A DNA stretch of 20,000 bases, taken from NCBI GenBank assembly GCA_013115125.1, contig JABANN010000105.1, forward strand, positions 51,831 to 71,830, given 5' to 3'. The first letter of the stretch is position 1, and each line of letters begins with the position of its first letter. The stretch is from Perkinsus olseni (Eukaryota). Below are positions 1-20,000 of the stretch, piece by piece. Made by a program: the position numbers and the translations under genes. The notes below the pieces were generated by a model. The model was not told the origin of the DNA and searched no databases. It saw only the letters and a list, made by a program, of their open reading frames with translations.

Positions 1-1090
1 CACAGATGTTGATGATCTGGGAGCCCATGCACGCTGATGCCGCCATCGAGCCGTAGCCACGACTGGCAACAGTTATGGCATTCACTGTGTCGGGTATCTC
101 AGCCCCAATGGCGACCAATATGAGGCCGAAGTAGCCCATGCTGGACGGCTGGCCAAGTAGCGTCACCCAACGGTCTACCACCGTCCCGAGCACGAAGGAT
201 GCTACGGTGATCCACAGGAATGCAGCCACGAAGGTTATGGGGTAGAGGTCCTCTCGAGGCTGGTATATTCGACAGTCAGGACAGGTCGCGTCCACGGCCC
301 GCTTCAAAGGGGCCATCAGTGCTACCACCACGGTCTTCGGAGAGGGTACGCGCTTCTTACGTGGACGATTGCCCTGCTGCTGTTGAAGCAAGGGCTGCGT
401 CCGTTGGGAGTCGTACCGCTCACGGAAGATCGAAGTGGACTCCTTCGCAAAGAGCTCTCTGGGGTTGGTGCCGTGACTGAGCTTCCATTGCTTGTACCAA
501 GCATTGACCTTCCGTGCATAGCATAGGACCAGCACGTAGACAACGTAGGTGAGAAGCTCGAAGGCGGCCAGTGCCAGGTCAACCCCTCTTCTCAGTGCCC
601 ACATTAATATGCCCAAGGCAATCATATAAAAGCAAATGTCCCGGGCGAGGGGACGGCGCTTGAGAGCGAGGGGCCTTCCATCTACCATTACGAGTGTGCA
701 CATGGCGGGGATGGCCAGGAAGGCGATGAGGCCGCTGCCAAGAATCGCTCCAACGCCCAGCTCTGCTTCTGTTACATCTTCAGGGTGGTCTGTTCGAGAC
801 TGTTTGAGTAGGGACCTGACGGTCGCCACGGAGTTGACGGTGATTTCCGGCACCGCTCCGCCTAGGGCCATGAAGGTGGCACCTCCGACATCCTCAGGAA
901 CATCCCAGTGATCGCAAAGTGTCTCCATCGAGTTGCATAGATGGTCAGCGGCAAAGGACAGGATACCAAAACAGTAGAGGAGGATGACCAGTTCGAGCAC
1001 TATGCCGTACCAAGCATGGTCCACGCTGTCCAGACACATGCTCTCCTCGAAGTGTGATAGGGTACATGCTGCTCTGCCTTCATTAAACAT
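1..1090 (-). CDS. Ca2+/cation antiporter (CaCA superfamily, NCKX/SLC24-like), intronless, 3' end beyond window
   Basis: Manual minus-strand translation is open from ATG 1090 to base 1, so it is absent from the ORF track (no stop). It reads MFNEGRAAC...VLELVILLYCFGILSFAADHLCNSMETLCDHWDVPEDVGGATFMALGGAVPEITVNSVAT...ELGVGAILGSGLIAF...PLARDICFY...YFGLILVAIGAEIPDTVNAITVASRGYGSMAASACMGSQIINIC. The alpha-1 and alpha-2 repeats match CaCA exchangers. The start could instead be the next in-frame Met (MCLDS). Confidence 0.9.
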   Translation of the reverse strand, partial: MFNEGRAACTLSHFEESMCLDSVDHAWYGIVLELVILLYCFGILSFAADHLCNSMETLCDHWDVPEDVGGATFMALGGAVPEITVNSVATVRSLLKQSRTDHPEDVTEAELGVGAILGSGLIAFLAIPAMCTLVMVDGRPLALKRRPLARDICFYMIALGILMWALRRGVDLALAAFELLTYVVYVLVLCYARKVNAWYKQWKLSHGTNPRELFAKESTSIFRERYDSQRTQPLLQQQQGNRPRKKRVPSPKTVVVALMAPLKRAVDATCPDCRIYQPREDLYPITFVAAFLWITVASFVLGTVVDRWVTLLGQPSSMGYFGLILVAIGAEIPDTVNAITVASRGYGSMAASACMGSQIINIC

Positions 1091-1250
1091 GCTCCAGCGT
1101 CCATGGCAGAAGGAATGACGGAATATGAGATTCTTGTGAACTTGCGAACACTTGCTTTTCCTTAACTTCAAGATACCTCTTGAGAGACATTGAAAATTGC
1201 CAACTCTGGTCATGCTGCTCTATCAGTCTTTCTTTTTATACCCATCATCT

Positions 1251-2336
1251 ATGTGTACTCCGCAGCACCTGAACGAAGCCTTGTTATTGGCCTGCAACAC
1301 TTACCACGAGCAGCTCCAGGATGAGCGTCGCCGGACTCGTGAGCTTGAGCAGCAGAATCACCAATTGAAGCGCCTCCTCACCGAGTACCATCTCGTTCAG
1401 TCAGAGGGCTATGGTGGGTCTTCCCGAGTGCTGCTGTCGTGCAAGCGTGTGATCTCTCAGATTCTTGCACTCCAGAACGACATAACAGTGCGCCATTATT
1501 GACGCCGCCGACCACTTCCGATACCACTCCAATCGTTGGAGGTGGCTATTGTCTTCCCGACCTTCTGAAGCAGCTAGATCAAGAAACCGAGGCATGCATC
1601 TTTATCGTGAGGAAGATCCATAAGCTGCGGTGAGTGCATCCTCCGGAAACATTTCTCCGACTGATCATTTCGCCAGGTTCCAGTCAGCGAGCATTTTGGA
1701 GCAGTACTTCTCTGGTTTCGGCGACGTGAAGAAGGTCCTACTACTGCCGTGGAGGCGCCAAAAATCCCTTGGCTCTCACCCTGGCAAGGCTCGGTAAGCA
1801 ACACGCATGCCACGCCCTTCGCAATTCGTCGTTGTCAGCCCTGCTTCGATGGGGTTCGTTGTAATGAAGTCGCCTCTGGCCGTATCGAATATTCTCGCGT
1901 TGCCACAGCACACTGTGGCCGGCTGGCCCATAAGCGTTCAAGTGTTCGAGCGGCAGGCGGATAAGTCCGGTGGGGGTAGGCGGCGACTGGTCGTTGCTGT
2001 TTGTACGTCGTCTGTTCAGATTCACGAAGGTCCAGTGTTACCTCCGATTTCCTCACTTACGAATGGTCTTCCCCAGCGAGCACTGCTGCTACTCCTGCTG
2101 TCGACCGCGCCTCTTTCATGCTCGAGAGTAGCAATCCCCTCGACGGAGATTGCTCGGCGGCGCTCTTCGCTGCCGAATCAGTGCTCAGAGGCCTGACAGA
2201 CGACCTTTCCGGTCCAGGCGGCTCTGACCGAGTGGCTGATTGCAAGGAATTCGTACCCTCAGTGGACGCTTCCTCGGCACTCCCCACCACTTTTATATCA
2301 CAACCGGTGAATCCGGACCATATGCCGCACTTATAA
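1251..2336 (+). CDS. 5-exon gene: N-terminal coiled coil, divergent RRM-like domain and Ser/Thr-rich tail (dinoflagellate/perkinsid-type RRM protein)
   Basis: GT-AG introns at 1414-1460, 1630-1676, 1794-1838 and 1970-2019 (47, 47, 45, 50 nt) join the ORF pieces in frame: ...ACIFIVRKIHKLR/FQSASILEQYFSGFGDVKKVLLLPW...AR/PASMGFVVMKSPLAVSNILALPQHTVAGWPISVQVFERQ. IFIVRKI and SMGFVVM are RNP2-like and RNP1-like strands. Confidence 0.8.
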
Positions 2337-3066
2337 TGCATATGTTATTTATAAGGGCTCCGATTACTGCAAAGTCAAGTAGTTGGTGTTCTCTCGTCGG
2401 TTCATATACGCGGCTGTAGCTGTGCATGTCATATCAAGGGGATGCCCCCGTGACTGTATAAACGTTTTTTTTGTTTACTGAGCGAATCTCGCTGTCATCG
2501 ATTTATCCCATATATCAAAATGCTCCCAACCGGGTTGGATCCCGGCGTCCATGGTCCTCAAGCATCGCACGCTTTCCTCTGCAGGGGAAGAAAGCGTTTC
2601 CACATTTTGTTTGTGTTGGGTTGGCTCAGTGGATACTACGTCTTTCTGCTACGATTAATTTCAGCCCCCGGGCGAGGTTTTGAAAGCTTGAGACAGACTC
2701 TACATATCCTATCCCTCATGGGTTCTCCTGTAGTAACTGCTCAACCCCATGGTCTCTTTACTAGACAAGTATTCTAGTCTGTCTCCTGATTGGGAAGCCC
2801 GGCAACAACTAAGGTAGACATAACTAATCTGGGCCACTTGGCCTGTCTCATGCCAGCACTTCAGTCTCTACCATACCAATAAACAATAAGTGATAATCAA
2901 GAAATACGTGGTCAAACAGAGCTTGAATGAAAAGATAGAAAATGACTTGTAAATGATGAGGCATCACAATATGCGGATAACGAAAGGAGATCTCCAGCTG
3001 AGCAAGACATGAGCTAGCATCCATCCATGTGACGAACTACTGACGAGGTTGTCCTGTCTCAGAAGG

Positions 3067-3468
3067 CTAAACCATCGGAGGGAATGGCAGGGGGAATACC
3101 GACAGAATAATCTGATGACCATGGTATAGTATAGTAAAGGTGTCGTCAGCGCGACAGTAGGGGATTTTCTTCCAGTCCTCGACATTGAGGTCGTACTTCT
3201 CCGCAAAAGCCTTGAAGTTTTCATCAGTTGTCTTCAGCTCCAATACAGATTCATCCGGGTTCACATTCCAAGGAATGTCACCGGTGACGTCAACTATGAG
3301 GGGGAAGTCATTGGGATTTATGATGAAGATATTGACGATGTTCGGGGGCTTGAACGACCACGTGCTCTTGAAGAATTCGTTGTCCGAGTTGAAGTATATC
3401 CTATTCGGCGGGAAGGCGGCCACCCTCTGAAGAATGGCGATCACCAACAGAATGAGGGAGCGACTCAT
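3067..3468 (-). CDS. Secreted family paralogue A (133 aa, signal peptide, function unknown)
   Basis: MSRSLILLVIAILQRVAA-FPPNRIYFNSDNEFFKS...TGDIPWNVNPD...LNVEDWKKIPY...DTFTILYHGH...PFPPMV*. Start chosen by alignment with five paralogues; the ORF-track N-terminal extension is not conserved. Confidence 0.85.
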   Translation of the reverse strand: MSRSLILLVIAILQRVAAFPPNRIYFNSDNEFFKSTWSFKPPNIVNIFIINPNDFPLIVDVTGDIPWNVNPDESVLELKTTDENFKAFAEKYDLNVEDWKKIPYCRADDTFTILYHGHQIILSVFPLPFPPMV

Positions 3469-4714
3469 GCGAAGTGGTACACTGCATAACGGTCTTATCA
3501 ACAACAAGCATCACTGCATCGGCAAAAACCCAACTCGAACTTCCCAGAACGCATAGACGGTATCTGGCAGATTTTATCTGCGGCTCTTCGTATGCGTGCT
3601 GGTGACAGGGAACGCCCTCGTCCCCAGCGAAAGTAGCGCATTCCATGCTTCAAATCTGCAGATTCGAGGATTCTGATCGATCGTCCCCCAAGCATGTGCC
3701 TCCCGCGAGACTCTGGGACGGGGCGGCAGTTTCGCTACTGCAGAGGGCATGACTTACATGATCGAGGGGGTTGACCCCTTTCGCTGTGTCCGGCGAAAGC
3801 TGTCTACCAAGGATACAGCGAAGCTAGAAGCATGGGCTTGATGGTCTGGGGCGCATCGGCCTTCTAGTTTTCTGAATTGCGAGTATCCTGAGGACTCGGA
3901 AGTTTCGAGGATCAGCTTTTCGTAACCTTGTTTTCGAACTGAGGGAAGGGGTTCCACACTGCGATGGCTAATGCGTCGCGCCCTTCTCGCTCGACAGGCG
4001 CACAGTGGCGCTGCCCAGGGGATTCCCCTGAGGGGAATGCTAAACGCCCTGTTCCTGGTTCGTCGAACGAAGGCGGGTTCATTACGCCGCCTGAACTCCA
4101 GGAAGCTCTTGTTGAACTACCTCGAGTCGCAATTGAATCGAGTGTGATAACTGGATCGCCACGGGGTCGTTATCAAATTCGCTACTCGTTTTCGCGTCGC
4201 CTAGCTAGCCACGAGAGATTCCGCGCGAGTGGTGATACGGTATGATGTCTGATCGCCACCCTTGGAATGCACATGGTATGATGAGACCTCAGCATCGGAG
4301 CCTTCGACAGCCTCGCATCCCGAAAAGGCCTCTCGCATTTGCTGAACCTAATCGGAACAGACAGTCTTTCAGATGTATGCGTGGATTGGAGTCACCCGAT
4401 GGGGCTCCATTCGAGTGAAATTACGGCGAAAGGGACTGCACTAGCCTCGCAGCCGGGGCTCGCGGAGGAGTGAGAGGTTCTCAAACTCGAAGGACATATT
4501 CCACTACTCCGAAACTGCTCCAGCAGTGCCAACGCAAGCACACGTCGCTCAACCCGGCTCGATTCGAGCTCTCGAGGTATGGTGTGAGCAAAAAATGGTA
4601 GCAGAGAAAGAATCTAAATACCTCTGCTTCTTGCTTATATTTTTCCGAGTAGACATTAATCTCGTCCGGAGTGCGGACAGGCTGCCCGGGACAACCTCGC
4701 TCGTCTGCTTGAGG
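3469..4714. repeat. Duplicated intergenic spacer, copy 1 (between A and B)
   Basis: Colinear with 5117-7018. Shared strings include acggtatct, tcttcgtatgcg, ccaagcatgtgcctccc, ggttccacactgcgatggct, gtctgatcgccacc and gcggggctcgcggaggagt-like. Confidence 0.85.
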
Positions 4715-5116
4715 TTACCGCGACGGAATTGGCCCGGTATATGGCGCAAGAACGATAAGATGACCATGGAATCGTATAGTGAAGGTGTTGTCATCAACAT
4801 TGAAGGGGATGTTCTTCCAGTCCTCGACATTGAGGTGGTACTTCTCCACGAAAGCCTTGAAGCTTATATCAGTTGTCTTCAGCTCCAGTACATACTCATC
4901 GGGGCTCACATTCCAGGGAATGTTACCCGTGGTGTCGGTTACGCAAGGGAAGCGCTTGCAATATATAATAATGAAGATATTGACAACATTCGGGGGCCCG
5001 AAAGACCACACGCTCTTGAAGAACTCATTGTCCACGTTCAAGTATGTCTTATTCGGGGGAAAGGCGGCCACCCTCCGAAGAGCGGCGATCACCAATAGAA
5101 TGAGGAAGCGAGACAT
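4715..5116 (-). CDS. Secreted family paralogue B (133 aa)
   Basis: MSRFLILLVIAALRRVAA-FPPNKTYLNVDNEFFKSVW...LNVEDWKNIPF...NTFTIRFHGH. Closely similar to A. Confidence 0.85.
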   Translation of the reverse strand: MSRFLILLVIAALRRVAAFPPNKTYLNVDNEFFKSVWSFGPPNVVNIFIIIYCKRFPCVTDTTGNIPWNVSPDEYVLELKTTDISFKAFVEKYHLNVEDWKNIPFNVDDNTFTIRFHGHLIVLAPYTGPIPSR

Positions 5117-7018
5117 ACGAAGGGGTACACTGCATTGCGGCTTGATCAACGAGCAAGCATTTCTGGGGGTGGTCAATAGACCTCCCCTGAATTCCAGAAG
5201 CGCTCCCAGGATTGAATTTAACGTGCGGAAGACGATTCTGGGAGCACTCCTGAATCCAGGTCTATTGAACACCCGGACTGCATCAGCAAAATACCCAACT
5301 TGAGCCCCCCAGCACGCTTGAACGGTATCTGCAGATCTTCGTATGCGCCTTCTGGCCCCGTCGAGAGCAGCAGATTCCATACTCCGAACCTGCAGGTTCG
5401 AGACTTCTGATAGATTTTCCTCCAAGCATGTGCCTCCCACGAGGTCGTGGATCTGGGCGACGGTCTTGCTATCACTGCAATAGTATTGCAGAGAGCATGA
5501 CTTGTTTGGCCGAATGAGTTGATTCTTCTCTTTGTGTCTGGCAGAAACTGTCTACCGTGGGTACAGCGGCGCTACCAGCTAGAATCACGGACGGCTTGAT
5601 GGTTCATGACGCATAGGGCTTCTCATTTTCGGAGTGCGAGTATCTTGACGACTCGCAAGTTGCGAGGTTCAACTTCCTATAATTTCGTTTTCGAACTGCC
5701 GGGAGTGGTTCGGAACCACTGGTTCCACACTGCGATGGCTGTCGGGTCGCGCCCCTCTTGGAGTAGCGCTGTCCAGGGGAATGCTGCACGCCCTGTTTCT
5801 GGCTCTTTGAACGAAGCCGAGTTCATTAGTGATGCTTCGGAAACTTTCCGTGGTTTCGGGAGTACTTTCCATACACCCTGGATTCATTACGCCGCTGAAC
5901 TCGAGGGAGCTTCCCTAGAGCTACCGGACGTCGGAATCGAATCGCGTTTATCTCAGGCGTCTCTGCGGAGGAGAGAAGTCATTCCGGCAGTTAGTGCTAT
6001 TGTATTTTGCAGAGCTATTACCCCTGCACACCGCTTCCGATGCGGCTTGAGTACCTCTTCGGAGTGTGGCTGCGGCGCGCCGGTTAGAGATTTCCGTCGC
6101 GACCTGCTGTCGTGTGCGTTCTTGATACCTGCGCGGGAGGCGGTGGCTGGGGGAGTGCCCTACCATCTCTATGAGATGGCGACGGATCTGACGCGTCGCA
6201 GGTCATTCAATCGTCCTTCAAAACTCTCTAAAAACCTCAGAAGACCGCTGTTGTGTAGAATTGGCGCGACATACAACACGGTGTATGAGGAGATCTTCCA
6301 TCACCAGGCGTCTAACTCGGCAAGAGTCTAACGAAGCCGGACCCGGCGTTGGACTATGAACTCACACACACCAGCCGTGGCGGCTGGTGTGACCGCTCGT
6401 GACGGCCGTCGGAATCGAAATGCTTATGATAAGTGGATCGTCATTGGCTCGCTATCAACTTCGCTACGCATGGCCGCGAGCCCACCGCTGCTTGATAGCC
6501 TAAGCTATGCGCAGCTCTCCTCTTGAGGCAGAGGTGAGCGTCGCGCTACGATATTAAGTCTGATCGCCACCTCGGAAGGCGCATGGTCTAAAGGGAATTC
6601 AGTCGAAGTCCTCGAAAGTCTCGCATCCCGAAGAGGCCACTCGCTCTAGCAAAACCTGGTCGAAACAGACATCGTCTTTCATATAGAGAGTGCGTAGGAT
6701 AGAGTCACTCGATCGGGTTCCATTCGAGTGTAGTTTTCATACCGCGAGGGGAACTCCACTAGCCTCGCAAGCGGGGCTCGCGGAGGAGTCAAGGCTTATA
6801 AACCTCGAATAACATACTCAGCTGATCCGCAATTGCTACAGCACTGCCAACGCAAGCACACATCGCTCAACTGGGCTCGATTGGACTTCTCGAAATATGG
6901 TGCGAGCAAAAAAGGGTAGCATACAATGAATCTGAATACCCCGGCTTCTTGCTGATGTTCTTCCCAGTGGGCGTTCGTCTCGTCGGGAGTACTCACGGCC
7001 TCGTTCATCTCTACGGGG
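5117..7018. repeat. Duplicated intergenic spacer, copy 2 (between B and C), with extra segments
   Basis: 5117-5945 matches 3469-4140 and 6557-7018 matches 4245-4714. The part adjacent to the stop codon recurs at ~8875-9099, next to D. Confidence 0.85.
5161..5277. mobile_element. ~116-bp imperfect inverted-repeat (MITE-like) insertion
   Basis: Absent from the paralogous spacer (caagcat|c|actgcatc near 3505-3520). Arms gggtggtcaatagacct...gctcccaggattg and cgattctgggagc...aggtctattgaacaccc are reverse complements with few mismatches. No clear TSD. Confidence 0.55.
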
Positions 7019-7414
7019 CTACGGCGGAAAGGGTTCGGTAGACGGCCTGAGATCGATTTGTTCACCATGGTATGGTATAGTAAAGGTATCGTCGAAGGGG
7101 TTGTAGGGGATGTTCTCCCAGTCCTCGACCTTGAGGTCGAACTTCTTCGCGAAAGCTTTGAAGTTCTCATCAGATGTGTCGAGGTTCAACAGAATTCCGC
7201 AATGGTCCACCTTCCAAGGAATGGGGCCGCAGGAGTAGATTGGGAACGGGAATCGACTTTCTGGGGTGATCGTGAACGTGGCGATAGTACCATCAGAAAA
7301 GAAGTACCACGCAGTCCTGAACTCACGGGCCTTGCTGACGTATAGCTTATTGGGGGGAAAGGCCGCCACCTCATACAAGAAGGCCAGCAGCAACGAAGTG
7401 ACAAGGTGACACAT
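7019..7414 (-). CDS. Secreted family paralogue C (131 aa)
   Basis: MCHLVTSLLLAFLYEVAA-FPPNKLYVSKAREFRTAWYF...LKVEDWENIPY...DTFTIPYHGE...EPFPP*. Confidence 0.85.
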   Translation of the reverse strand: MCHLVTSLLLAFLYEVAAFPPNKLYVSKAREFRTAWYFFSDGTIATFTITPESRFPFPIYSCGPIPWKVDHCGILLNLDTSDENFKAFAKKFDLKVEDWENIPYNPFDDTFTIPYHGEQIDLRPSTEPFPP

Positions 7415-9099
7415 ACGAAGTGGTACACTGCAGGGCCACAGAGACGATAGACTCAAATTAGTGTGGGTTCTCATCAAGATACTCGACAGGAAATGAGGTC
7501 TTCACGCACAGTCACAGTCAATACATTACAGACAGTTGCACATTGCATTGCTGCACGCGATGTGTGTTCCTAATAATTCGGGGCCTGGTGTCCCTTTTTT
7601 AGCATCGCTGCACGTTGTCCCACTCATTGTCTCCTGATGCTCCCCCTGTCAATGTCTCTTTTTGCTGCAACGGATATCGTGGTTTACAAGTCGTGACCTT
7701 TCTTACCTCTAAGCTAGCCTTCTTTCACCGTTTTTATCGCTGGTTCACCCAGCGGTACCCAGCGGTACCCAGCATTATCCAGATGGTAATGATATTCAGC
7801 GTTTTTGATTGATGCGCAAATGTGGCGCACAGGTCCACGCGTGCGAGTTGGCCCATAAAATGTGACGCGATCGATCACTGTGTAGGAGAAAATCGGCCTG
7901 ACTTGAGCGTTCGTTCCTTTCTTTGCCTCGCACCTTTACAATTGTCCAGTTGAACATTGATAATACTCATCATGCGTAGGCCACGCAGTGTGGCTTCGCA
8001 CTACGCTCGCCAATAGTTACGCTAGAAGTCCTAGCCTAGCACTAGCTTCGTAGGGAATGCATAGCGTTATTGGCGTGACGTCGAGTTCAGCGACGGCCTA
8101 AGGTGCTGCATACTGCCTATAGCGCCGACCTTCTCAGGAGGTCCTTGTGTCCAGTTGCCCGCTTCGAGTGGCAACTCACTGCTGTGTACATTACGTGCGG
8201 TTAGCCTTCCTTTCCACGGACTTTTTCCTAAGTCTCCTAGTAGTGAGGCGGACTGGTGCACTCCCGATGGTAGCGCAAATCGTGTTCTGGAGCCAAAAAG
8301 ACTCCAGTCCCAATTGGTGACTGCGAAGAAGAGGCGTTTTTCGTTGATCGAAGGATCCGGACGCCTTCGACCGGCACGGCATTTTCCAGCGCGGGACATG
8401 AGTTAGTCCACGACATGCATCATCACCGAGGGCGTCTTTCACAGCGGAATAGCATTAGCGAAATGGTCAGCGATGCAGGCTTCGATGGCCGCGCAAGTGA
8501 CCTCGGAATCGCTGGTCAACATGGCATGAATGGACCTTGAAAACCGTAATCGGTGGAACTACGATGATGAGAAACGCCTGAACTTCGATGACTCTAGGAA
8601 GTCCAGGGAGTACTGAGTCTTGGTAGACCGTGGCTTGTATTTCAATGTTGAACGATAGTTCGGTTGAAGTTTGCAGAGTGACTAACAAAGTGTGAATCCC
8701 GAGGAGTGGCCGCGGCTACGGTAGCGGCCACCCCCAATTAGCTGACTCGGCGCTAATGGACATTGAGTCTGGCAATCTAAGTGATATTCTAGAGAGTTGT
8801 GATCGGCAAATTCTCTTCACGGTGACGAGAATTTGTTTTTGTGGGTGACGGCGTCACTTATGTAAGGAGAGAGGCTATAAAGGGTTTGAAACTGCTCCGG
8901 TGCCCCAACACTATTAAACCAAGCACACATCGCTCGACTCAACTCGAGTTGACTTAACCAGTTATGTGCTGAGCTGCTCAGCCTGAGCAAAAAAGGATAG
9001 CGTATGATGAATCTAGATAACCCTGCTTCTCGTTGTTGTTGACCGGATTCCATATCCTTCTCATCGGGAGTACTGACGGCCTCGGTTGTCTACATGAGG

Positions 9100-9496
9100 T
9101 TACGGTGGAAAGGGCTCAGCAGATGGCCTAAGAACGATATGACGACCATGGTATAGTATAGTAAAGGTATTTTCAAAGGGGTCGTAGGGGATGTTCTCCC
9201 AGTCCTCGACCTTGAGATCGAACTTGCTCGCGAAAGCTGTGAAGTTCTTATTAGATGTGTCGAGGTGCAACAGGAGTCCGCAATGGTCCGCCTTCCAAGG
9301 AATGATACCGCTAAAGTAAAATTGGGAATGGCCATCGACTTTCCGGGGTGACCGTCAACGCGTCGAGAATACCATCAGGACTGAAGTACCACGCAGTTCT
9401 GAACTCAGGGGCCTTGCTGACGTAGAGCTTACTCGGGGGAAAGGCCGCCACCTCATGCAGGAAGGCCAGCAGCCACGGGGTGATAAGGTGGCACAT
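9100..9496 (-). pseudogene. Secreted family paralogue D, +1 frameshift (pseudogene or homopolymer error)
   Basis: 397 nt versus 396 nt for C. Removing one base of the A4 run at 9318-9321 restores ...PFPIYFSGIIPWKADHCGLLLHLDTSNKNFTAFASKFDLKVEDWENIPYDPFENTFTILYHGRHIVLRPSAEPFPP*, colinear with C. Confidence 0.8.
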
Positions 9497-9899
9497 ACGA
9501 AGCGGTACACTGCAGAGCCACAGAGACGATTAACTCATTCTAGCCCCAGGACTGACTCAATTCCACGCAATCATCGCGGCGACTCCTTGCATCCCTGAGT
9601 TGTACTCAGCGGACGTAGGCTACGCAGCGTAGCTATTTACTAGCTTTCCGCTAGCCTCGTCATGATCATTCTTGTGCGCGTACCGTGGTGGACGTGGAGC
9701 CACGCGATTCTCGTCACCACAGGACAGAGAGAAGCCGCCGTCAACTTGCACCACCCGACCATTTTTTCTGAACATTAATGTCGATTCCGGACGAGCGGAC
9801 CCGAAAAAATCTGATTACACAAAAAACTGATTATGCTGTGTACCAGCAGCAAATAAGTGCGTAAGACGTTGGTTCTTTCTTGGTTGATAATGTTTCTCG

Positions 9900-10080
9900 A
9901 ATATTGAAGTATAGGGGAGAATGTCACATCACCATATCCATCGGTATCCTTACGCAGACCATTCTTCTTGGCATCCAAGTCGGCCCTTCCAGTTGACCTC
10001 GTCGAGCCCTGCGACGACGGCGGAAACTCAGGCCCTGATGGCCTTTTTACTATGCTCAACACAACACCACTGCGTGGCTT
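9900..10080 (-). pseudogene. Decayed partial copy of the 254-aa gene
   Basis: EFPP...TGRADLDAKKNG...TDGYG aligns with QFAP...TGRANLDAEQDG...TDVYR. At the DNA level ggcatccaagtcggcccttccagt (~9970) matches ggcatccaagtttgcccggcctgt (~10614). Boundaries approximate. Confidence 0.5.
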
Positions 10081-10244
10081 GAGAGGCAGAGCTTTATTTT
10101 CTCAAACCTCAACGAAACAGTTTTGACGAATGGATTCTCTGGGTGAGCCAGGGGAACGTGACAATGAAGCCGAATACTACAGTGCGAAGTAACTCAGCCG
10201 GGGTCGCACTGTTGAGTACTCACTGACTACTACTTGGGTATAGA

Positions 10245-11009
10245 TCAGCCATACAGTGTACCATTAGCGACAACGCGAGCGACTTGGAAATGTTTGCCAT
10301 TGTCTAACTGGCCTCTCGCACCAAAATAAATTTCATGGCTCCATCCTAGTTCCACTTTTGTTATGGTCACTGCCTGCTCGGTGTTCACTTTCACTTTATT
10401 AGTGCTGCCTTCGACCGGATTATCAAAGTGCAGGTCCAGTTGCTCACTGAAGGCCCAACCCTCTATATCGTACCCTCTGTTGCTCGCTCTCTCTCCGCCG
10501 GGGAAGCAGACAAATACTCTGGATGGGACCTTGATCCCGTCGATTCTACTCCCCAAACCGCGATAGACATCGGTGCCGCCCGGATTCCACCAGAGGTATA
10601 CCCCATCTTGTTCGGCATCCAAGTTTGCCCGGCCTGTGATACTCAGAGTACTTAGGCGATGGGGCGCGAACTGATGAACAATGAACGTACTGAACTTGAT
10701 TCTCATGTCGCCGTAGCGTCCAGGCATGTCAGTCCTGATAATGATGCCGGTGCTCTCTTGGTAGAGTCCAAACTCACCATAACCCCTCATGTTGTAGATG
10801 CAGGCGCCCTCCTGCAAGTTAATATCGCCTCCACCCTTCGCCGGACCGGGCCCTCCGTTGCAACCCTTCGGATAATCAGCAGTAACAAGCACAGGCGGTT
10901 TAGGCGGAGGAGACGTGCGAGGGCGATGAACGGGATGAGCAACATGCTTGGCATCACTAACCATCACCATTTGCATAATGTAGAACAAGAAGAGCCCGCG
11001 GTGAGGCAT
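10245..11009 (-). CDS. Hypothetical secreted protein, 254 aa, intronless
   Basis: Long clean ORF with a hydrophobic N-terminus (GLFLFYIMQMVMVSDA), a Pro-rich linker (SPPPKPP) and a Gly/aromatic, beta-strand-like mature region. No family recognised. Confidence 0.7.
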   Translation of the reverse strand: MPHRGLFLFYIMQMVMVSDAKHVAHPVHRPRTSPPPKPPVLVTADYPKGCNGGPGPAKGGGDINLQEGACIYNMRGYGEFGLYQESTGIIIRTDMPGRYGDMRIKFSTFIVHQFAPHRLSTLSITGRANLDAEQDGVYLWWNPGGTDVYRGLGSRIDGIKVPSRVFVCFPGGERASNRGYDIEGWAFSEQLDLHFDNPVEGSTNKVKVNTEQAVTITKVELGWSHEIYFGARGQLDNGKHFQVARVVANGTLYG

Positions 11010-11162
11010 GTTGGAGCTAAGCCTCTAGAAGTGTAAGTCGGGAACTAAATTTGTTCGACTAATGCCAATACAGATTGTCTGCCTGGGATCACCCGATTGG
11101 GATAGATAGTTGTGTCTTGCGTTACGGCAGGAACGAATCGCTGACCCGTTTTTGCTGCCGGC

Positions 11163-11227
11163 CACTAGCTCACCAGTGCTCAGCTAGTGAGTCACTAGGT
11201 GACTCACTAGATGACTCACTAGCTCAC
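11163..11227. repeat. Nested direct/inverted TGACTCACTAG motif cluster upstream of the 254-aa gene
   Basis: ctagtgagtcac-tag-gtgactcactag (11184-11210), then tgactcactagctcac again (11212-11227), plus cactagctcac at 11163. Confidence 0.8.
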
Positions 11228-12320
11228 TTGTGATGGCCCATCACCGCATGGACCACCTGCCTGCCATCACCTGCTCGTACGCTACTCGACCAATAGCACG
11301 CATGATAAGTATCCGTGTGTTCGTGTCAAGCGTTGTTACGTATGCTTAGCTATGCGTAGCGGCTGGTTCTCGGCTGTTCCGGTAGTTTTACTAAGCGTAT
11401 GAAGTTGGAATAGAAATTTCAATTAGATCCCCGAAAATCTGTCCCTGGTTTCAGAAAGTTATCGAACTCTTAATGAATAACTCAGAACTTTGAAAAAGCG
11501 TTCCGACCGGTGATATCTGCATCAAATCCAGTTACTAAGTTATACATGTTAGATGCAGGCCAATTCCCTGATTTTCGCTTTGGGATTTTCTGTTGCTTGA
11601 GTCACAGTATTGAAGGCGAACAGTGACAGCTGCGGTGCCGATGCCAACTTTGTAGTTGAGCATTTGAAGGCACTCAAATTCAGCTTCTCCATTCAGCGGA
11701 ATTAGTTGTGTTGGGTAGGCTCAGTGTATAGTATGCCGCTTGTCGAGAATTGGCAGTGTGCATTATAGCTTTTAGTCTATAACTCGGTATGGTATGGCTA
11801 TTTGAGACGGGGCTCAAAGAAAGGTGAGATTGGACTTGAGGGGAGCTAAGCAATACTGTGATCTACAGCTTATCAGCCTAAACTTAGTGTGACACGTATA
11901 CTCATGCACGCGAGTGCCAAGTGCAGAATGATATTGGATACTGGTAGTAAGTAAGCAGCAGCGATGGTTCTCACTATAGTGCGCAAGGTGGGTGAGCGGC
12001 AGCAATGAAGGTGGTTGGCACTATATTGCAAAGGCCATTGGAAGAAAAGAGGGCCTCATTGGGCGTCGCTCCAAAATGCAGCAACCGAATCTACAGTACT
12101 TGCGTTCTGCTAGCGCGAAATACTGAGCGATGCTGTCATCTGTCCGGTCGTGCGTGCTGATGATAACTCGGATGTTTTTGCGACCGGGAACAACCATCAT
12201 TAGGCGGCGCAAGAAACAAGAAGAGAGCGTTATTGAAGCTCGTTCCGGTCTAGACTCTGAGGCTCACAGTGCAAGTACGCATCCTTCCCGGGCTACCCCT
12301 GAGGTTCTCCTACATTCACA

Positions 12321-12353
12321 ACTCAAGTACTCAACTAAGTTGAGTACTTGAGT
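12321..12353. repeat. Perfect 33-bp palindrome (16-bp arms, 1-nt spacer)
   Basis: actcaagtactcaact-a-agttgagtacttgagt. Confidence 0.95.
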
Positions 12354-12556
12354 AACTCAACAACTCCCTGGATTCAACTAGTTTAACGTGGAATGGATAA
12401 AGTAAACAACATAAACAAGTTGTGAAAGTATCATTAAAAGTCATGAATAACGAGATGAGATAGATGAATCGATAGAGAACGAGTAAAGAGTAGCCGCAAA
12501 GATTCTGTCCAGCAAACGTTCCCACGATGAAGTATTGAAAGTGAGAGGTTTGTCGA

Positions 12557-12943
12557 CTAAACTTTTGGAGGGAAAAACTTGATTGCCGACAATACAATAT
12601 AATGACCATGGAATGATATAGTAAAGGTATCATCACTGCTGTCGTAGAATATGCTTGCCCAGGTCCTGACATTGAGGTCGTACTTCTTCGCAAACGCTTG
12701 GAAGTTGTCATCGTAGGTTCTCAGGTGCATCAGGGACCCATCAGGGCTGACGTCGAAAGGCATATCACCCGTGTAGTCAAGAGGAGGAGAATCATAGGGA
12801 ATTATGAGGATGGAAACTTCACCGGGATCGAAGACCCACACACTCTTGAAGAATTCATTGTCCACATTAGAGTACACCATACTCTGGGGGAAGGTGGCCA
12901 CCCTACGAAGGGATGCTATGAAGAGAACGAGGAGGGGAGACAT
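12557..12943 (-). CDS. Secreted family paralogue E (128 aa)
   Basis: MSPLLVLFIASLRRVAT-FPQSMVYSNVDNEFFKSVW...TGDMPFDVSPD...KKYDLNVRTW...DTFTISFHGH...FFPPKV*. Confidence 0.85.
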   Translation of the reverse strand: MSPLLVLFIASLRRVATFPQSMVYSNVDNEFFKSVWVFDPGEVSILIIPYDSPPLDYTGDMPFDVSPDGSLMHLRTYDDNFQAFAKKYDLNVRTWASIFYDSSDDTFTISFHGHYIVLSAIKFFPPKV

Positions 12944-13349
12944 ACGAAGTGGTACGCTGTAGGACCACAGGTACGCTCAAGCAGCAAGTCTCACCGCAAC
13001 GGCGTTATCAAGCTCGAAACTGGTCGGCATGTACGCAGGATCAACAAAACTCACGTGAACTTACGCGTGCGGGTCACTTGGACGCGCCTCACCAGTACCG
13101 ATACCATTACATTAACAACTCTCGTTCAACATATCCGAGGAACGTGATTGATCATATCATCGAAATCTTGAACTCCGGCGGGTTCTAGAGTGCGCTGGCT
13201 TCCCGGTTGTGGGGGATATCGTATCTCGGATCGTCGAGATGGTTGATCTCAGTCCGTTTGTCAAATAGACACTGTACACAAGGGGACCTTCTACCCAAGA
13301 TCATAAGCGCTATGATTGTTCAGGGCGTATGAGGACTTGCAGCCGCTGG

Positions 13350-14130
13350 GGAGGAGGCTATCTTGAAGACTGATAAGTTGCAAGGATCAACCTGTTTTCC
13401 TCCTGTACCCGACTGATGTGAGTATTGATACACTGCAACGATTGACGTGCTGCGCCCTATCCAGCTCAGCACTCGCTCAGCAATGCTGCACTTGGGGACC
13501 CACTGTCCCCGTCTCCGCGACCGGAGGAACGATGCCTACACCCAGGAGTTCACGAGTTTCCAGGAAATTCCACTCCGCCGACGTCATGTCTCTCACTGAG
13601 TCTTGAATGTGTTCGTGCTTGGATTTCCAACCGAGCCTCGGTGTCGGCACTGCCAACTCGGTTCATGCCATATCTTCAAACGCTGTTGCACTGATTGTAC
13701 AAATGCCCTAGAAAAGCCTTAATACTGGAAGCAAGCCTATCCACAAGCATCCATACAGCGTACCAGCACCCATGACATACGCGAGCGAAAATCTGACGTG
13801 GCTCAGAATGCCTCAGAGGCATTGCCTGTCGCCCTATAATGGATATGACAGAAGGAGCTCCCCTTTGCCTTCGTCAGCCCTGGGTGTTGCGAACCACCAC
13901 CTTCGTGGCATATGACACTGGCTTCCCTGGCAGAAACGATGGAAGATCCGACCTTCGAGGTATTTCCAAGTAAAACCAATCCAAGAGCGTCGATGAAGCT
14001 TGGACATCGGGAACTACTCCCATTCTTTCCTCGCTAGGGACATCCTTTCCACCACGATAACGCCATCGTCCTCGTAACGCAGATCGGCCGTGTAAGCAAC
14101 ATCGGGCAGAACCGCGCAGCTCGCTCCAAG
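13350..14130 (-). mobile_element. Possible highly decayed RT/RNase H remnant (DIRS-like)
   Basis: Fragments across several frames with stops, in the expected order: RYEDDGVIV (YxDD, 14065-14076), FIDALGL, L*GILSHV, ETRELLGV. This is motif resemblance only. Confidence 0.3.
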
Positions 14131-15096
14131 CCTTGAATCATTACACATTTTAACTTAAGGGGAGTAAAAGGTGCTTAAAACAAGCTTCTGGTTCAGAAAT
14201 AGACGGGCTGTGCAGTCAATCAATCCCGTTACTGAGGATCAATCCTGGGACAATCCAGAGCCTTTTTTTGTTCAGTCAATACTTTTCCGACTTATTCGTT
14301 TGGGGCTGGTATAGACCGGTCATGAGGGCTCCGTGGAGTGCGAAAAGGCACCAAATTACACGGAGTCGCAGCGTAATTCACCAGGATGGTTGGTTGGAAA
14401 TTTCAATTGAAATCGACCCCGAGATCGATCCTGCGAAATCTCAGGACAAGGTTCCCTGGGTTGCAAGTGGGCAAGAGCTGGCTGGCGAGTGATGATGATG
14501 AGTTGATGATTAGGCATGTGATCTGAGATGTTATTCATTTCCCTGGTTTTGAGTGGTATCCTTGCTTTTTCAAATCGAGCTTCAAAATCGGTCTTCAAGC
14601 AAGATTCGAAACCAAGTCGTAAACTCTTTTTGTTTTGCTGTCCCCCTTTCCATTGGAGCGTCTCAAAGGCGCATCGGAAGCGCTCGAAATTAGACCATCG
14701 GAGGTTTTCGTTGTCACTGGCAACTTCTTCTCGAACGAGAGAAACCTCTCTGAGTGTAGACTGAGGTAGGACGTTCTGAGGAGGCCCATGCGAGCGTCAT
14801 AGTACTCGTGAACACTGTTCACCGAATAGCCTATACTCCGCAGACACCGAGCTCTGAACTGCTTTAAGAGTATTTCCATATTAACAACTCAACCTCGCAA
14901 AACTCGGCAGCATGAGTCTTATTGTACGACTTCTACTTGTAAGGCTCAGCAGAAGTTTCCCCGTCTAACCTCTGCTCGAGAAAGCCCAGCTGCAACAAAA
15001 TTGTTGGAAGAGACGCTGAGGCTGTGGGCCTGCCATCTGCAAGCACCTCAACATAGAATTGTCAAGAGTTATCGAATCAATGAAAATGATTATCAG

Positions 15097-15594
15097 TTAA
15101 TGAATACTTTCATAAGAGATCCCCGCCGATAGTAATAGATCCTTCAGTCGACGGAAATCTCGATCGGCCTTCTTACTCCTGGTGCCCTGTGGAGGCGGGA
15201 CAGGTGGCTTACCGACGGCTTTAAGAATAATTTTGTGACCCTGGTATAGAACAGTAAAGGTATCATAGTTGCGGTCGTAGGGAATGCTCTTCCAATCCTC
15301 AATGTTGAGGCTGAATATCCTCAAAAATTCTTGGAAAGTCAACTCATGAACATGCAGCATGATAGCTTGGTCGTTGGGGCTCGGGTCCCAGTCAATGTCT
15401 CCCGTGACGTCGTGACGAAAGGGGACCTTCGACGTGTCAGCGTCGAGAGCACAGATCTTGACCGTCAAGGGGGAATCGAAGAGAAACCCGATCCACACGA
15501 ACTCGTTGTCAACATTGGCGTAGAACTGTTTAGGTCGGAAGGCGGCCAGTTCATATAGGGACGCCACCAGCAACACGTTACGGAGGTGGAGCAT
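15097..15594 (-). CDS. Secreted family paralogue F (165 aa, divergent, with C-terminal extension)
   Basis: MLHLRNVLLVASLYELAA-FRPKQFYANVDNEF...TGDIDWDPSPND...LNIEDWKSIPY...DTFTVLYQGH, followed by a Pro-rich/basic tail. Confidence 0.8.
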   Translation of the reverse strand: MLHLRNVLLVASLYELAAFRPKQFYANVDNEFVWIGFLFDSPLTVKICALDADTSKVPFRHDVTGDIDWDPSPNDQAIMLHVHELTFQEFLRIFSLNIEDWKSIPYDRNYDTFTVLYQGHKIILKAVGKPPVPPPQGTRSKKADRDFRRLKDLLLSAGISYESIH

Positions 15595-16899
15595 ACGGAG
15601 TAGCTCACTGCAGAGAGGGGCTGACGAACCGGTTAGTTGCACCCTAGGGAGTCGACATAGGCCCACACGCATACACGATATATGGGCCGCATGTTGTGCG
15701 TGCGGGTCACAGAGACGCGTCCCCTCAATTTCCGTCCGAGTGCATTTCACACTTCCACACCGTATGCGTAAGGATCCCCATTAGTCGCTTCTCGCATAAG
15801 AATGTTTCGCAATCTGGCTGGCCGTCCGTCGTCGGTGTTGTCGCACGTAGGATGCTCTTTGCGTTGGCTTTTTCTCCTCGTAACTACTAGACACTGTCCA
15901 CTAAGGATACAACGGCCATTGTCACCAGTTGTTCGGTGGCGCCAGGGAAGTGTGCCTTTCCAACTTCTTGAGGATGCAAGCTCTGCGCAGCTTTCCTGTT
16001 GCCAGGCACCGATTTCGTGCATTCTCATCCTGCACTAACGGAGTGGTCGTCGACCGTGAATATACACAAGCTGCGCCCGCTGAAGCCGGAGCACGTGCGC
16101 AGTACCGCTCCTACAGGGCATAGCTAGCTGTCCCAGCGTCCCCAACGGTTGGGGACGTGGAGTTCCTCGGATTCCTGAGTTGTTTTCACAGGCGGTGGTT
16201 TGCCCGTCGTCTCCTCGTCGTGCCAGAGTGTTGATTCAAGTCGCAGAAGGGAGTCCGTCTGCCAAGGCGCCGTCGTGTTTGCTGAGGGCGTGGTGAGTTC
16301 GACGTAACACTGTATAGACCCTCCAGTAACGGATGCTGTAAGCTTGAGGGCTACATCCTGCGTTCCCTCATACTCCAACTCGACGACGTACAGGCATTAG
16401 TATTCGGGACCCGAGTTTTCAAGCTCAATAAGCAGAGGAAATTTCATCGCTCGAACCGCGCCGAGCTCATGTGTGAAGCGATCCCGAGTTTTCACCTTAG
16501 CTGCTGTGGTACCCTAACGTTGATGATGTTATCATCAACCCTTAGTGATACACTGTCCCTTCTTAATGTACATGACGATTTTGGCTGTAGTTAATAATGC
16601 TCCGAATGGTTACTCCTGTACCTCTTCTGCCTCACCACTGGCTGTGCTCCTGGATACATTCCCACATACACGGAATGAGCGGTGAAGAAGGGATTACAGC
16701 AGCGTGTCGCCCTTCCGTTATGAACGTTCGTTTCCACAATGGTAGTCGCGCCACACTGCCCCAGCAAGGCCGAACTCTCTAGAACGCAGGACATGATGTG
16801 AAAAGAAAGTACACATCGGAGTGTCGAGTACGTGCCACGTACCACGTGGAGACAGCGGTATATAACTTCCATTGCTTCCATCGTTAGTATGAAGAGACT

Positions 16900-19800
16900 T
16901 CACAGTAGCCGCCTTCCCTCGTAACCCTGATCCACCTTCTCGAGGTGCATGCACCAACGGCCAGCACATACAGGAAGGAGGAAATGGCAAACAACGAGGA
17001 ACATTGACCATCTATGATATCCCTCGCTGTCAGGGAACCGCACTATAGAGAACAACTCATTGAAATCCGGTGAAGCTTCACTCGCCACGAAAAGTACTGT
17101 GCTAACTGCGGCGATCAGGCCCATCCACAAGGGACGGTTAGCCTTTATCGGCTTCATTGAGGGCGGACCTTCGTAGTTGGCGAGGAATGCCGAGAAGTGG
17201 CAGGCGGCTGTTTGAACGAACATCTGAGAATTCAACAGCGTGGGCTCGAAAGCGGAGTCCAAGTCGACCACTGGCTCCTCAGACGTGTACGAAACGGCAA
17301 GCTTCCACCCAGCAAGTAACAGAACCACGTGGGTGACCAATTGGAGGGCAAGTGAAAGCTGAACACTCCAGTGGAAGATACTCGTTACTGGCTTGAACTG
17401 GGACAGTCGGCTCTCCGGCTTCGATCGCCCCATGGCTGTGAAGATGAGCGACACTGCAATGGCCTCTACTGCCGACTGGAAGTCTCCAAACTTCGCGCCA
17501 TGCAGAGTGAGAACGGAGAGACTGAATGCGCCCAGAAGAGAATTCAAGGCGAGTATCTTGTACATCATCATCACGACTGAGTGGACAGCTCGGCCACAAC
17601 GGAGTACGAAGGGAACGCACTTGATGCATTCCCCCCGATAAGTGAAGGGAGCGGCCACGCTAGCGTCCATACCAATCTTAGCAATAGGTGCTGCACCGTG
17701 CAGTTCGGCATCACGAAGCTGCAGTTTCCTCTTCCGAGACATCGGACCAGAGTCAGAGGACAGCAAGGAAATGCCCACATGCGCGGCCTTCAGGGCCCCG
17801 ACGTCGTTCGTGCCATCGCCACACATGAGAGTGATCTTGCCGTCAGCCACCATACGCTTGATGACGTCCTCCTTGTGTACCGGGGACATTCGACTGAACA
17901 CTGTAATCTTGGACAACTCTACATCCGGCTTCTCGAGAAGGGCCTCGACTGATCTCCCCTGCACGCACAGCGTGTACTGGTCGCTGTGCTCAAAGCCCCA
18001 ATCCAGCGACACTGTGTAGTCCTCAGAGTCGAACAGAGGCTTCCACTCCGAGGCGTCGTCCGACAGCAGCAGAACGCCATCAGAATCAGTCGGCTTGAGG
18101 CCGATGGACTGAGCCACTTCGCAAGATGTCGATGGATGGTCACCGGTGATCATACAGAGAGGTCTGATGACGACGAGCGATGGAGCGCGCGACGCGCGCA
18201 GCAGCAGCGACTTACACTTTCCTGCCCATCTCCTTCAAGTGCTTCACAGCCTTCAACGTCCCAGTCTTCACCTCATTCCGGAAGGCGATGAAAGCGACGA
18301 AGTGTAGGTTCTTCTCGACTTCTCCTCTATCAGTGATCTCACTATGGTTACTAACACGCTTGTACGCTGCAGCGATGACTCTAAGGCCCTCTCCGGCGAG
18401 GTCCTGGTACGTTCTACGATACAATGCTTCAACAACCGAGACAGCAACAGCCACGGGTAATACTCTTCGTAGTCCTGCGGCACCTCCTCCAGAAGAGTTT
18501 CCATCATCTCCGGACTGCCTTTGCTTAGTATCAACAGCTCGCTCGCCGGACCATTCTCGTGCCTGCTCCGATGATGAACGGGATTCTCAAGAAACCCGCG
18601 TGCCCACTTCATAGCCACACTCATCCGCTGCAGCTCACTATTGAAGGGGAACCTTGCGACCTGGGAGTACTTCTGTGTACCGAAGATTTGAAAGGTCGGA
18701 GGACCGGAACCCGGCAGGTATATGGCTGAAAGAAAGATGATACAACAAGTGGCGTCCACGAGGGCGGGAGGGGACCAAAAAACGAACGATGGAGTTAGTC
18801 GAAATTGAGACGTGCGGGGTTGGACGGGAGCCTACCCGCAGCATTAGTAGCCGTTCTCGCTGCCGTGAACATGGCCTGTTCGAGAGGGTCCCCGACAAGC
18901 ACAGTCGCCAGAGGATCGACTGCAGTGAGGGAATGGCAGCAGGACAACACCAAGTCCAGCAACCTGAGATTTCGTACTTCCCCTTAGACCTTCGGGGAGA
19001 GCGCGATCCGACCATGACGCAAGGTCGTGAACACAGTATGTCGAGGAACCGTCCCATTAAATGCAAGCCAACTCGAGCCGAAGCCTACTTTCCCGAGTCC
19101 ACACTACTCGCCCCCGGCAACATCTTAGTCGCTTGCAGCGTCATCTCGCCATTGGTAATCGTACCAGTTTTATCGAAGCAGCAAACATCAACCTACATTC
19201 AAGTGAGCGGAGCGGAGCGCTTCGTTCGAAGCTGCTCTCACCTGGCCGGCGAAGGGTAGTCGGAAGGGTTCCGTGCAGTATACACCATTCCTCATGAGAT
19301 GGCCGAGGCACATCGTCACCGCAATGCTCATGGTCACAGGGAACTCGGGCGGTACTACGTTCGTTATGATGTGCGTTAAAGACAGGAAGAGCTTCCACCT
19401 AAAGAAAACGTCTGTCACTACCGCGGTGGGCGGTTCTTACTTCGAGGAGGTCAGGCTGGGCTCCACAACCAACCGGTAGTAGGCAACGTATGCTGATGCT
19501 ACCAGGGCTACTGCAACCAAGCCAAGCAAGAACGTAGTGGCCTCCCTACTATTGGTACCTATAGTGGACGCCATCTGTTATGCCGCAGGGGGCCCACTCT
19601 GTTACCAGTGACCCGCTCCGACGAGTAAAGTATAGTCCGTACAAGCTTCCCCTGTACAGTATCGAACCCCGTCCTCAGAACGTAACAGACGGCACCCTGC
19701 TTGTATGGTGCCTGCCAACGACGAGAGTACACCCCGTCTAAAGTGAGCGGTAGTACCTTCCTTAGTATCCCAGAGTCTGGGGCAGTAGGGGGTTTGGTTA

Positions 19801-19911
19801 ACACCAGTCTAGTGCCAGAGAACAGGATGTTGTCCTTATGCACACCTCGACAGTCCAACTTGATGTCGGACGAAGAAAGGATCGATTCCTTCAGATTTGG
19901 AGTGGACTCTC
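16900..19911 (-). CDS. ATP13A1: P5A-type ATPase (Spf1/ATP13A1-like), multi-exon, 5' part missing
   Basis: Motifs in order: (G)ESTPNLKE, ILFSGT, VLRTGFDTVQGKLVRTI, VVPPEFP, EPFRLPFAGQ/VDVCCFDKTGT (19160-19174), VGDPLE, FPFNSELQRMS, KGSPE, MITGDHP, MCGDGTNDVGALKAAHVG, DASVAAPFT, then C-terminal TM helices. Short GT-AG introns include 18164-18215 and 18414-18463. Confidence 0.93.
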
Positions 19912-19928
19912 CTGAAAGGGAACCCCGG

Positions 19929-19930
<2 letters not shown>

Positions 19931-20000
<70 letters not shown>
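19931..20000. other. 70-nt poly-G run, probable sequencing/assembly artefact
   Basis: Pure homopolymer that runs to the window edge and interrupts an ATPase intron ~20 nt from the acceptor at 19912. Confidence 0.7.

Follow-up and report, generated by a model that had tools for sequence, protein, structure and literature searches.

What does an island of small, related reading frames on one strand encode, and why has it been multiplied? The question is raised by a 20-kb window (the whole stretch of DNA that was analysed) of the Perkinsus olseni contig JABANN010000105.1, read with the standard code, in which six co-oriented loci of one protein family lie on the minus strand. A first-pass annotation had described them as six intronless genes for an unrecognised, lineage-specific family of small secreted proteins, forming an effector or antigen-like repertoire. 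Our analysis leads to a partly different answer. With a probability of about 0.55, we regard the products as a secreted, soluble, calycin-like barrel family that is specific to the genus. P. olseni and P. marinus do heavy damage to clam and oyster farming, and what they export is very poorly known. The family is a candidate for the parasite-host interface or for nutrient capture, and could also be of use as a genus-specific marker.

Six related loci, five of them intact

We searched the window by tblastn with 15 family proteins and obtained matches at exactly six places, one of which (copy D) appeared as two rows in two frames. All six loci are found where the annotation had placed them. Since D is frameshifted, the six genes become five intact ones and a broken copy:

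3067-3468, minus strand: gene A, 133 amino acids (aa), intact open reading frame (ORF), leader MSRSLILLVIAILQRVAA followed by FPP
4715-5116, minus strand: gene B, 133 aa, intact ORF, mosaic
7019-7414, minus strand: gene C, 131 aa, intact ORF, SKAREF subtype
9100-9496, minus strand: copy D, C-like, a pseudogene or an assembly error
12557-12943, minus strand: gene E, 128 aa, intact ORF, core diverged most (GDMPF, VRTW, IFY)
15097-15594, minus strand: gene F, 165 aa, intact ORF, with a C-terminal tail of ~30 residues that none of A-E has

Protein identity to A is 67% for B, 48% for C, 56% for E and 41% for F, and a 107-nt core (repeat family D3) recurs in six copies at 71-100% identity, far beyond chance. 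The protein alignment bears out the leader ends, mature start F-[PR]-[PQ] and two subtypes described at first pass. Leaders end in VAA in A-D, VAT in E and LAA in F; the mature protein generally starts with FPP, with FPQ in E and FRP in F; N[SV]DNEF marks A, B, E and F, and SKA[RP]EF marks C and D. The C-terminal motif string proposed for the family fits A-D well and is loose in E (the variants listed above) and in F (GDIDW, FQEF).

Public records contain close counterparts. The closest database match of gene A is a P. olseni hypothetical protein at 94% identity, the second part of public gene model P0004 is identical in sequence to gene C, and E shares 99% identity with P0009 over 115 columns of the tree output. 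P0008, a relative of F, is without the C-terminal tail. Spurious ORFs as an explanation are ruled out by conservation across three species, ratios of nonsynonymous to synonymous change (dN/dS) below 1 and RNA cover.

Leaders and the mature start suggest probable secretion

A script found a start Met together with an FPP-type motif in 23 of 25 alignment rows, and in 22 of these 23 a hydrophobic leader of 17-19 residues precedes the motif, the exception being P0021 with 4 residues. The -3 and -1 residues before the Phe fit the cleavage rule in 13 of 23 rows, including all five intact window genes. In those five the maximum 8-residue hydropathy is 2.4-3.9, with Val or Leu at -3 and Ala or Thr at -1, and by this heuristic each has the hydrophobic core of 7-15 residues and the small -3/-1 residues of a classical signal peptide. 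The conserved Met is the first in-frame ATG in A and E. Mature proteins are acidic, contain 0-2 cysteines and have no second hydrophobic segment. Together these features suggest that the family proteins are probably secreted and cleaved at or just before the Phe.

The residue that follows the leader also brings in another destination. Where plastids are red-derived, plastid pre-sequences typically carry a Phe at +1, and here Phe directly follows the leader in 20 of 23 rows, near-invariantly. The proteins might then not be exported at all, the leader and Phe forming the start of a two-part signal to a relict plastid or another internal compartment. We consider this extremely improbable, as a transit peptide would not fit in: F-P-P is followed at once by residues of the conserved, modelled barrel described below, Tyr25 is present in 21 of 23 rows, residues 24-26 form a strand in the model of A, and the block 21-30 is modelled with a mean confidence (predicted local distance difference test, pLDDT) of 83.

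A family restricted to Perkinsus and expanded in P. olseni

The annotation had left the family unrecognised, and so it remains. Pfam searches with the five intact proteins at E up to 1 returned 0 families; with 23 members they returned nothing meaningful, the top rows being DUF1139 (E 0.0087, one member) and MBB1 (0.11, two members). A 23-member profile compared with Protein Data Bank (PDB) sequences gave two chance rows only (E 0.46 and 0.62). No description of the family was found in the main texts of the literature searched, and six P. marinus locus tags or accession numbers of the family were absent from the paper texts searched. In the databases and literature that we searched no member has a name, a Pfam family or a study; the theme, exported ligand-binding-type barrels and lineage-specific secreted arrays in parasites, is familiar.

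We then looked at how far the family extends. All 16 matches of a profile-seeded word search were P. olseni proteins. A HMMER profile of 8 sequences, run against 1.84 billion representative proteins at E <=0.001, gave 19 matches: 12 from P. olseni, three from P. marinus, two from P. chesapeaki, P0025 (which carries no species name) and P0024. The last, a 1048-aa protein from ENA that scored E 5e-11 through 8 short repeated stretches, is a false positive; it is a repeat protein of family DUF7507, and a dozen families in Pfam with no relation to it match it too. The Perkinsus hypothetical proteins (among them P. olseni P0001-P0023; P. marinus P0021, P0027 and P0029; P. chesapeaki P0026 and P0030) are true homologues, with profile E values from 5e-66 to 3e-4. 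They agree with the array copies in the leader, in the start F-P-P-x-x-x-Y and in two motifs, N-F-x-x-F and W-x-x-[IL]-P-Y.

A maximum-likelihood tree of 29 rows, rooted at the midpoint only and with long branches meeting at the basal split, places the array in a clade of 22 rows, all P. olseni, with support 95/94. The other, basal clade has 7 rows, from P. marinus, P. chesapeaki and P. olseni together with P0025. The basal clade has a conserved Cys pair, with Cys at its two positions in 7 and 6 of the 25 rows aligned, together with several N-x-S/T sequons; both features would be expected of proteins routed through the endoplasmic reticulum (ER). The P. marinus and P. chesapeaki members retain the pair and many sequons, whereas the array copies do not. 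Gene structure varies as well: annotation has joined three tandem P. olseni genes, each of which has a leader, into one gene model of 524 aa, and two adjacent P. marinus proteins (P0029 and P0036), of 490 aa each, hold several domain copies per chain.

With every named true match in Perkinsus and the array inside an all-P. olseni clade, the family is restricted to the genus Perkinsus and expanded in P. olseni, in line with the lineage specificity first proposed. The first-pass annotation had itself named three outcomes that would count against it, namely a match to a housekeeping family, no signal peptides and dN/dS near 1; none of them was found.

Purifying selection and the case for an effector or antigen repertoire

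We calculated Nei-Gojobori pairwise dN/dS over the mature domain for the 10 pairs of the five intact copies, with bootstrap 95% intervals. The ratio was 0.27-0.63 in all ten pairs, several of which have a saturated dS above 1, so that their ratios are rough. The bootstrap interval stayed below 1 in nine of ten pairs, the upper end for B/C being 1.11. Taken separately, the two halves of the barrel gave ratios of 0.09-0.59 (first half) and 0.23-0.70 (second half). Values above 1 appeared only in the 18-codon leader (A/B 2.47, A/C 1.18), which is too short to weigh; over the mature domain and in its two halves none of the pairwise tests gave dN/dS above 1. These results indicate moderate purifying selection on the family.

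They bear directly on the annotation's proposal of an effector or antigen-like repertoire. In this reading the array would be a set of host-directed effectors or variant surface antigens, secreted so as to manipulate or evade bivalve immunity and diversifying under positive selection. Several observations agree with it. The leaders are signal-like, the expansion is confined to P. olseni (the 22-row clade), gene turnover is visible in the broken D and, among other isolates, in C/D-type models that are truncated, and variation is greater in the first half of the barrel, with dN 0.26-0.85 versus 0.18-0.57 in the second. However, dS is also higher in the first half and the ratio there is no higher, and dN/dS is below 1 in all ten mature-domain pairs and in both halves, which leaves the antigen-like repertoire without an arms-race signal. 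The proteins moreover have no repeats, low-complexity stretches or hypervariable cassettes, and the basal clade is common to three species, which means that the domain predates any single host association. We therefore hold an effector or antigen repertoire to be unlikely.

A genus-wide domain under purifying selection, with a secretory leader, would also suit a structural or matrix protein of the parasite cell wall, vacuole or zoosporangium, exported but at work on the parasite's own side and without ligand cargo. The 490-aa multi-domain chains of P. marinus add to this, such chains being frequent in wall and matrix proteins. Most members argue otherwise: they are small, acidic, single-domain proteins with no anchor, repeat or cross-linking motif, and we judge a wall or matrix role improbable.

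A predicted small beta-barrel with an internal helix pair

The annotation had guessed at a small beta-rich fold, and two AlphaFold models agree with that guess. The model of A, built on a 23-sequence alignment, has pLDDT 83.9 and a predicted template modelling (pTM) score of 0.75. Its strands are predicted at residues 24-26, 34-40, 44-50, 58-61, 65-69, 75-78, 101-105, 110-115 and 118-124; two helices, at 83-91 and 96-100, lie between strands 6 and 7, and there are no others besides the leader. P0030 from P. chesapeaki shares 27% identity with A, and in its model (pLDDT 82.2, pTM 0.75) strands and helices follow one another as they do in A. The top conserved residues (F19, P20, P21, Y25, T62, G63, I65, P66, N84, F85, F88, W99, I102, Y104, F111) map to the mature N-terminus, the turn before strand 5, both helices and the next strand.

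Structural searches place the predicted fold near no solved protein: Foldseek found no match to either model in the PDB at E <=0.001. Weak rows for small barrels raise the idea of a secreted protease inhibitor that would block host or parasite proteases. The scores are tied with those of dozens of unrelated barrels, no motif is shared, and potempin is absent among the 50 matches listed for the P0030 model; we consider an inhibitor very improbable.

A working model for the family and what weighs on it

We favour an exported, soluble binding barrel because of the leader, the ER features of the basal clade, the small predicted barrel, purifying selection, and conservation across the genus together with expansion in one species. 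Each protein would be made with a cleavable signal peptide of 17-18 residues and enter the secretory pathway. The mature product, of ~110-115 residues, would begin at or just before the near-invariant F-P-P-x-x-x-Y and, as modelled, may fold into a single up-and-down beta-barrel of six strands, a helix-turn-helix (N-F-x-A-F ... D-W-x-x-I-P-Y) and three further strands. By analogy with other barrels, it might carry a small hydrophobic cargo, for example a sterol of the host, a fatty acid or another lipid, or the barrel might dock on a host molecule. The helical segment and last strands would serve as a fixed scaffold, and the variable first half could tune specificity among paralogues. That the barrel carries a ligand at all is, to our mind, possible rather than probable. 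With regard to sterols, passages of one paper report the suggestion that P. marinus cannot make them and needs those of its host, a suggestion that the authors themselves question (PMC2868825).

Several observations weigh against this picture. In 10 of the 23 members the residues before the Phe do not fit the cleavage rule; these may be cleaved a few residues earlier. The Cys pair and the sequons of the basal clade are lost from the array copies. The models of A and P0030 share most of their alignment, so that their agreement is a check of robustness and not independent. A helix-turn-helix between strands 6 and 7 is the arrangement neither of lipocalins nor of fatty-acid-binding proteins (FABPs). 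Finally, RNA cover of the genes is partial, comes from a single run, and that run's RNA status is inferred only from splicing.

Partial transcription of A and F

The sequencing run that we compared with the window contains 0.10 of the sampled words. Its contigs skip 13 segments, 42-125 nt long, whose ends read GT..AG at 1412-2019 and CT..AC at 18163-19756. These segments are introns, on the left of a plus-strand gene and on the right of a minus-strand one, so the run appears to contain spliced RNA. One contig without differing letters covers 2625-3272, that is the last 206 nt of the coding region of A and ~440 nt downstream; another covers 15355-15677, which takes in the first 240 nt of F plus 83 nt of sequence upstream of it. 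A and F are thus counted as transcribed in part. The uninterrupted ORFs and the gap-free contig across A are consistent with intronless genes, as first annotated. At the 90% likeness threshold some depth is also seen in the bins of B-E, from contigs that may not derive from the window's own copies. Eight of 30 bins are uncovered, among them those over the 5' part of E, the 3' part of F and most of the array's intergenic sequence, and this is not evidence of silence.

Between D and E the run piles up at 11340-12006 (core ~11777-11982) to a contig word depth of ~2400, ~10x that of the flanking genes, with several loose ends, a 123-nt skip with GT..TA ends, and no notable ORF or Rfam match. A strongly expressed non-coding RNA could account for the pile-up, as could a repeat that also occurs at other places in the genome. 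Rfam gave no match for the whole window or for 11600-12100 separately.

A conserved element at the start codons

The six upstream regions share a sole conserved block of ~20 nt, which ends in the start codon and is more conserved than the leader-coding sequence downstream:

3466-3484, minus strand: 19-nt element ending in ATG, of the CAGTGTACCACTTCGTATG type, found by upstream alignment and pattern search

Further copies lie at 5114-5132, 7412-7430, 9494-9512 and 12941-12959; that of F, at ~15592-15610 in our own reading of the six-copy alignment, has diverged by 4 mismatches. The 19-mer CAGTGTACCACTTCGTATG occurs 5 times at <=1 mismatch, with a chance expectation of 0.01 at <=3 mismatches. 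Since A and E have no upstream in-frame ATG, the block is non-coding. It begins with YAG, and parts of two papers report that Perkinsus mRNAs receive a spliced leader (PMC3101222; PMC2868825). For these two reasons we would guess that the block may be a trans-splice acceptor followed by a short fixed 5' leader. Joining of a spliced leader at the conserved CAG was not seen in the run: the F contig continues as genomic sequence to 15677, and none of the listed contig loose ends lies near a start codon.

Probable unequal duplication, a mosaic gene and a broken copy

How did the array arise? Copies of the D3 core are spaced 1645, 2301, 2081, 3460 and 2633 nt apart, and flanking sequence has been duplicated along with the genes:

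4295-4683, no strand: duplicated 3'-flank block of the tandem unit, families D4, D9, D11, D13 and D14, 71-85% identity

Counterparts of this block lie at 6603-7001 and, in part, at 8901-9040. The region of gene B contains repeat families D4, D7, D13 and D14, and B itself is a mosaic whose coding region and 5' flank are A-like and whose 3' flank is C-like. The 5' flanks of A and B are 78% identical (179 aligned columns, 242 gap columns), the 3' flanks of B and C 77%, and D shares the latter flank more weakly, at 59%. From this pattern B appears to have arisen when an A-type unit and a C-type unit underwent unequal crossing-over. The repeat debris that the annotation saw around the genes is in fact mostly the array's own diverged, duplicated flanks (families D4, D7 and D9-D14), and Tandem Repeats Finder reported only three short arrays in the 20 kb.

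The copies are of different ages, as dS ranges from ~0.35-0.5 (A/B, C/D) up to saturation (>1.5 versus F). In other isolates, five of nine public gene models of C/D type are without profile positions ~32-62. With tandem paralogues of graded divergence, a frameshifted copy (D) and an apparent recombinant (B), the sequence fits a tandem array built by repeated unequal duplication and birth-and-death evolution. This part of the first-pass annotation therefore gains from the frameshifted D, the chimeric flanks of B, the truncated models elsewhere and the P. olseni-only clade.

Copy D is read in two frames, an N-terminal part at 9311-9529 and a C-terminal part at 9100-9354. Aligned with C at the DNA level it shows a single one-base gap, D having an extra base in a short T run at 9318-9325. 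Its halves compared with C give dN/dS of 0.40-0.70, which is not yet neutral, so the break would either be of recent date or be an error of the assembly. In another isolate D has an intact counterpart, the C-terminal part of P0007. Public gene model P0004 fuses D's N-terminal piece to C, and the break is therefore apparently also in a public assembly, possibly of the same DNA. A low-depth contig (depth 5) skips 181 nt inside D, at 9126-9308, with GT..AG ends on the minus strand; with a shorter side of 28 letters this joint is too weak to interpret and may come from a paralogue or be an artefact.

Neighbouring genes and other reading frames

Inside the array and on both sides of it we identified the following:

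2-1213, minus strand: gene for a Na/Ca-exchanger protein, single ORF, PF01699, E 4e-28
1225-2570, plus strand: spliced gene without an assigned family, at least 4 introns of 44-47 nt
10245-11009, minus strand: ORF of 254 aa that is unrelated to the family, located in the array between D and E
16881-19999, minus strand: gene for a P-type cation ATPase, at least 9 introns of 42-125 nt

The annotation had set the array between intron-rich genes, and 13 of the 15 listed GT..AG or CT..AC contig joints (42-181 nt) do fall in the two flanks, at 1412-2019 and 18163-19756. The 254-aa ORF has a moderately hydrophobic start and no real Pfam family; it has two matches only, a hypothetical protein of P. 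olseni at 52% identity and the N-terminal part of P0007, a gene model that joins a relative of this ORF to a D-type copy. Possibly the ORF encodes another exported, lineage-specific protein of the island. Between B and C, a plus-strand ORF at 5606-6331 (241 aa, no Pfam family) overlaps a stretch, 6004-6670, where the RNA run reaches a depth of ~160 and has a contig loose end at 6371. At the end of the window, 19931-20000 is a run of 70 G that reads as poly-proline in an open minus-strand frame and may be an assembly artefact; the comparison with the RNA run passed over it as a repeat.

Comparison with known barrels and secreted families

Lineage-specific tandem families of small secreted proteins are common in parasites, which makes the present one useful and not surprising. 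The predicted fold invites comparison with two groups of barrels. For A, lipocalin-like barrels were the weak top Foldseek rows (3lhn at E 0.07, 5cyb, 3ge2, YxeF, Blc, Japanin), and the nearest known barrels of this kind are the bacterial lipoproteins 3lhn, 4qrl and 3ge2/5cyb, YxeF (2joz), E. coli Blc and tick Japanin. Lipocalins have a C-terminal alpha-helix packed on the barrel and an N-terminal G-x-W. The model of A has no C-terminal helix, its helices being internal; the conserved Trp of strand 2 occurs in the context [ST]-[TVA]-W, and in A, B, C and E the residue two positions ahead of it is not Gly; and no lipocalin profile in Pfam matched the five window proteins or the 23 members.

For P0030 the weak top rows were YxeF and proteins of FABP and cellular retinol-binding protein (CRBP) type (C. 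elegans LBP-3, 9dxi; CRBP2; As-p18). They share a barrel and a helix-turn-helix, with Foldseek E of 0.05-0.5 and template modelling (TM) scores of only 0.30-0.37. FABPs have ten strands, and their helix-turn-helix lies between the first two, A and B. Here, by contrast, nine strand segments are modelled and the helix pair follows the sixth in both models, and there is no Pfam match to these intracellular lipid-binding proteins. Because the helix pair stands after the sixth strand, unlike in lipocalins and FABPs, the models suggest that the family may have a separate barrel topology.

The best structural match of all was a Megaviridae protein, A0A5J6VJI0, in BFVD (E 5.3e-3, TM 0.72 on the target, root-mean-square deviation 2.8, 108 columns). 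It and A0A0N9QYY9 of Chrysochromulina ericina virus are uncharacterised giant-virus proteins with an identity of 14-18%. A language-model look-up ranked the family's own 56-member cluster first and a Nucleocytoviricota cluster second (score 0.93). No giant-virus link appeared at the sequence level in the profile search of 1.84 billion proteins, and the likeness between models is a lead only.

Outside the barrels, a parallel in function can be drawn with the elicitins of oomycetes. These are secreted sterol carriers of sterol-auxotrophic parasites, encoded in multigene clusters, all-alpha and disulfide-rich. By analogy with them, one could picture the Perkinsus proteins as host-lipid scavengers with an elicitin-like role, a new barrel topology and the helix-turn-helix as a lid, in which F-P-P-x-x-x-Y would be a processing or sorting signal and not part of the structure, the burst of Cys-less copies in P. 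olseni an adaptation to the lipids of different hosts, and gene exchange with giant viruses part of the history; taken as a whole, we find this picture quite doubtful. Like elicitins, the Perkinsus proteins form a family of small, probably secreted proteins that is tandemly amplified, in a parasite that parts of one paper report to need host sterols (PMC2868825). Their predicted fold differs and is unrelated to that of elicitins, and the likeness is one of functional analogy only.

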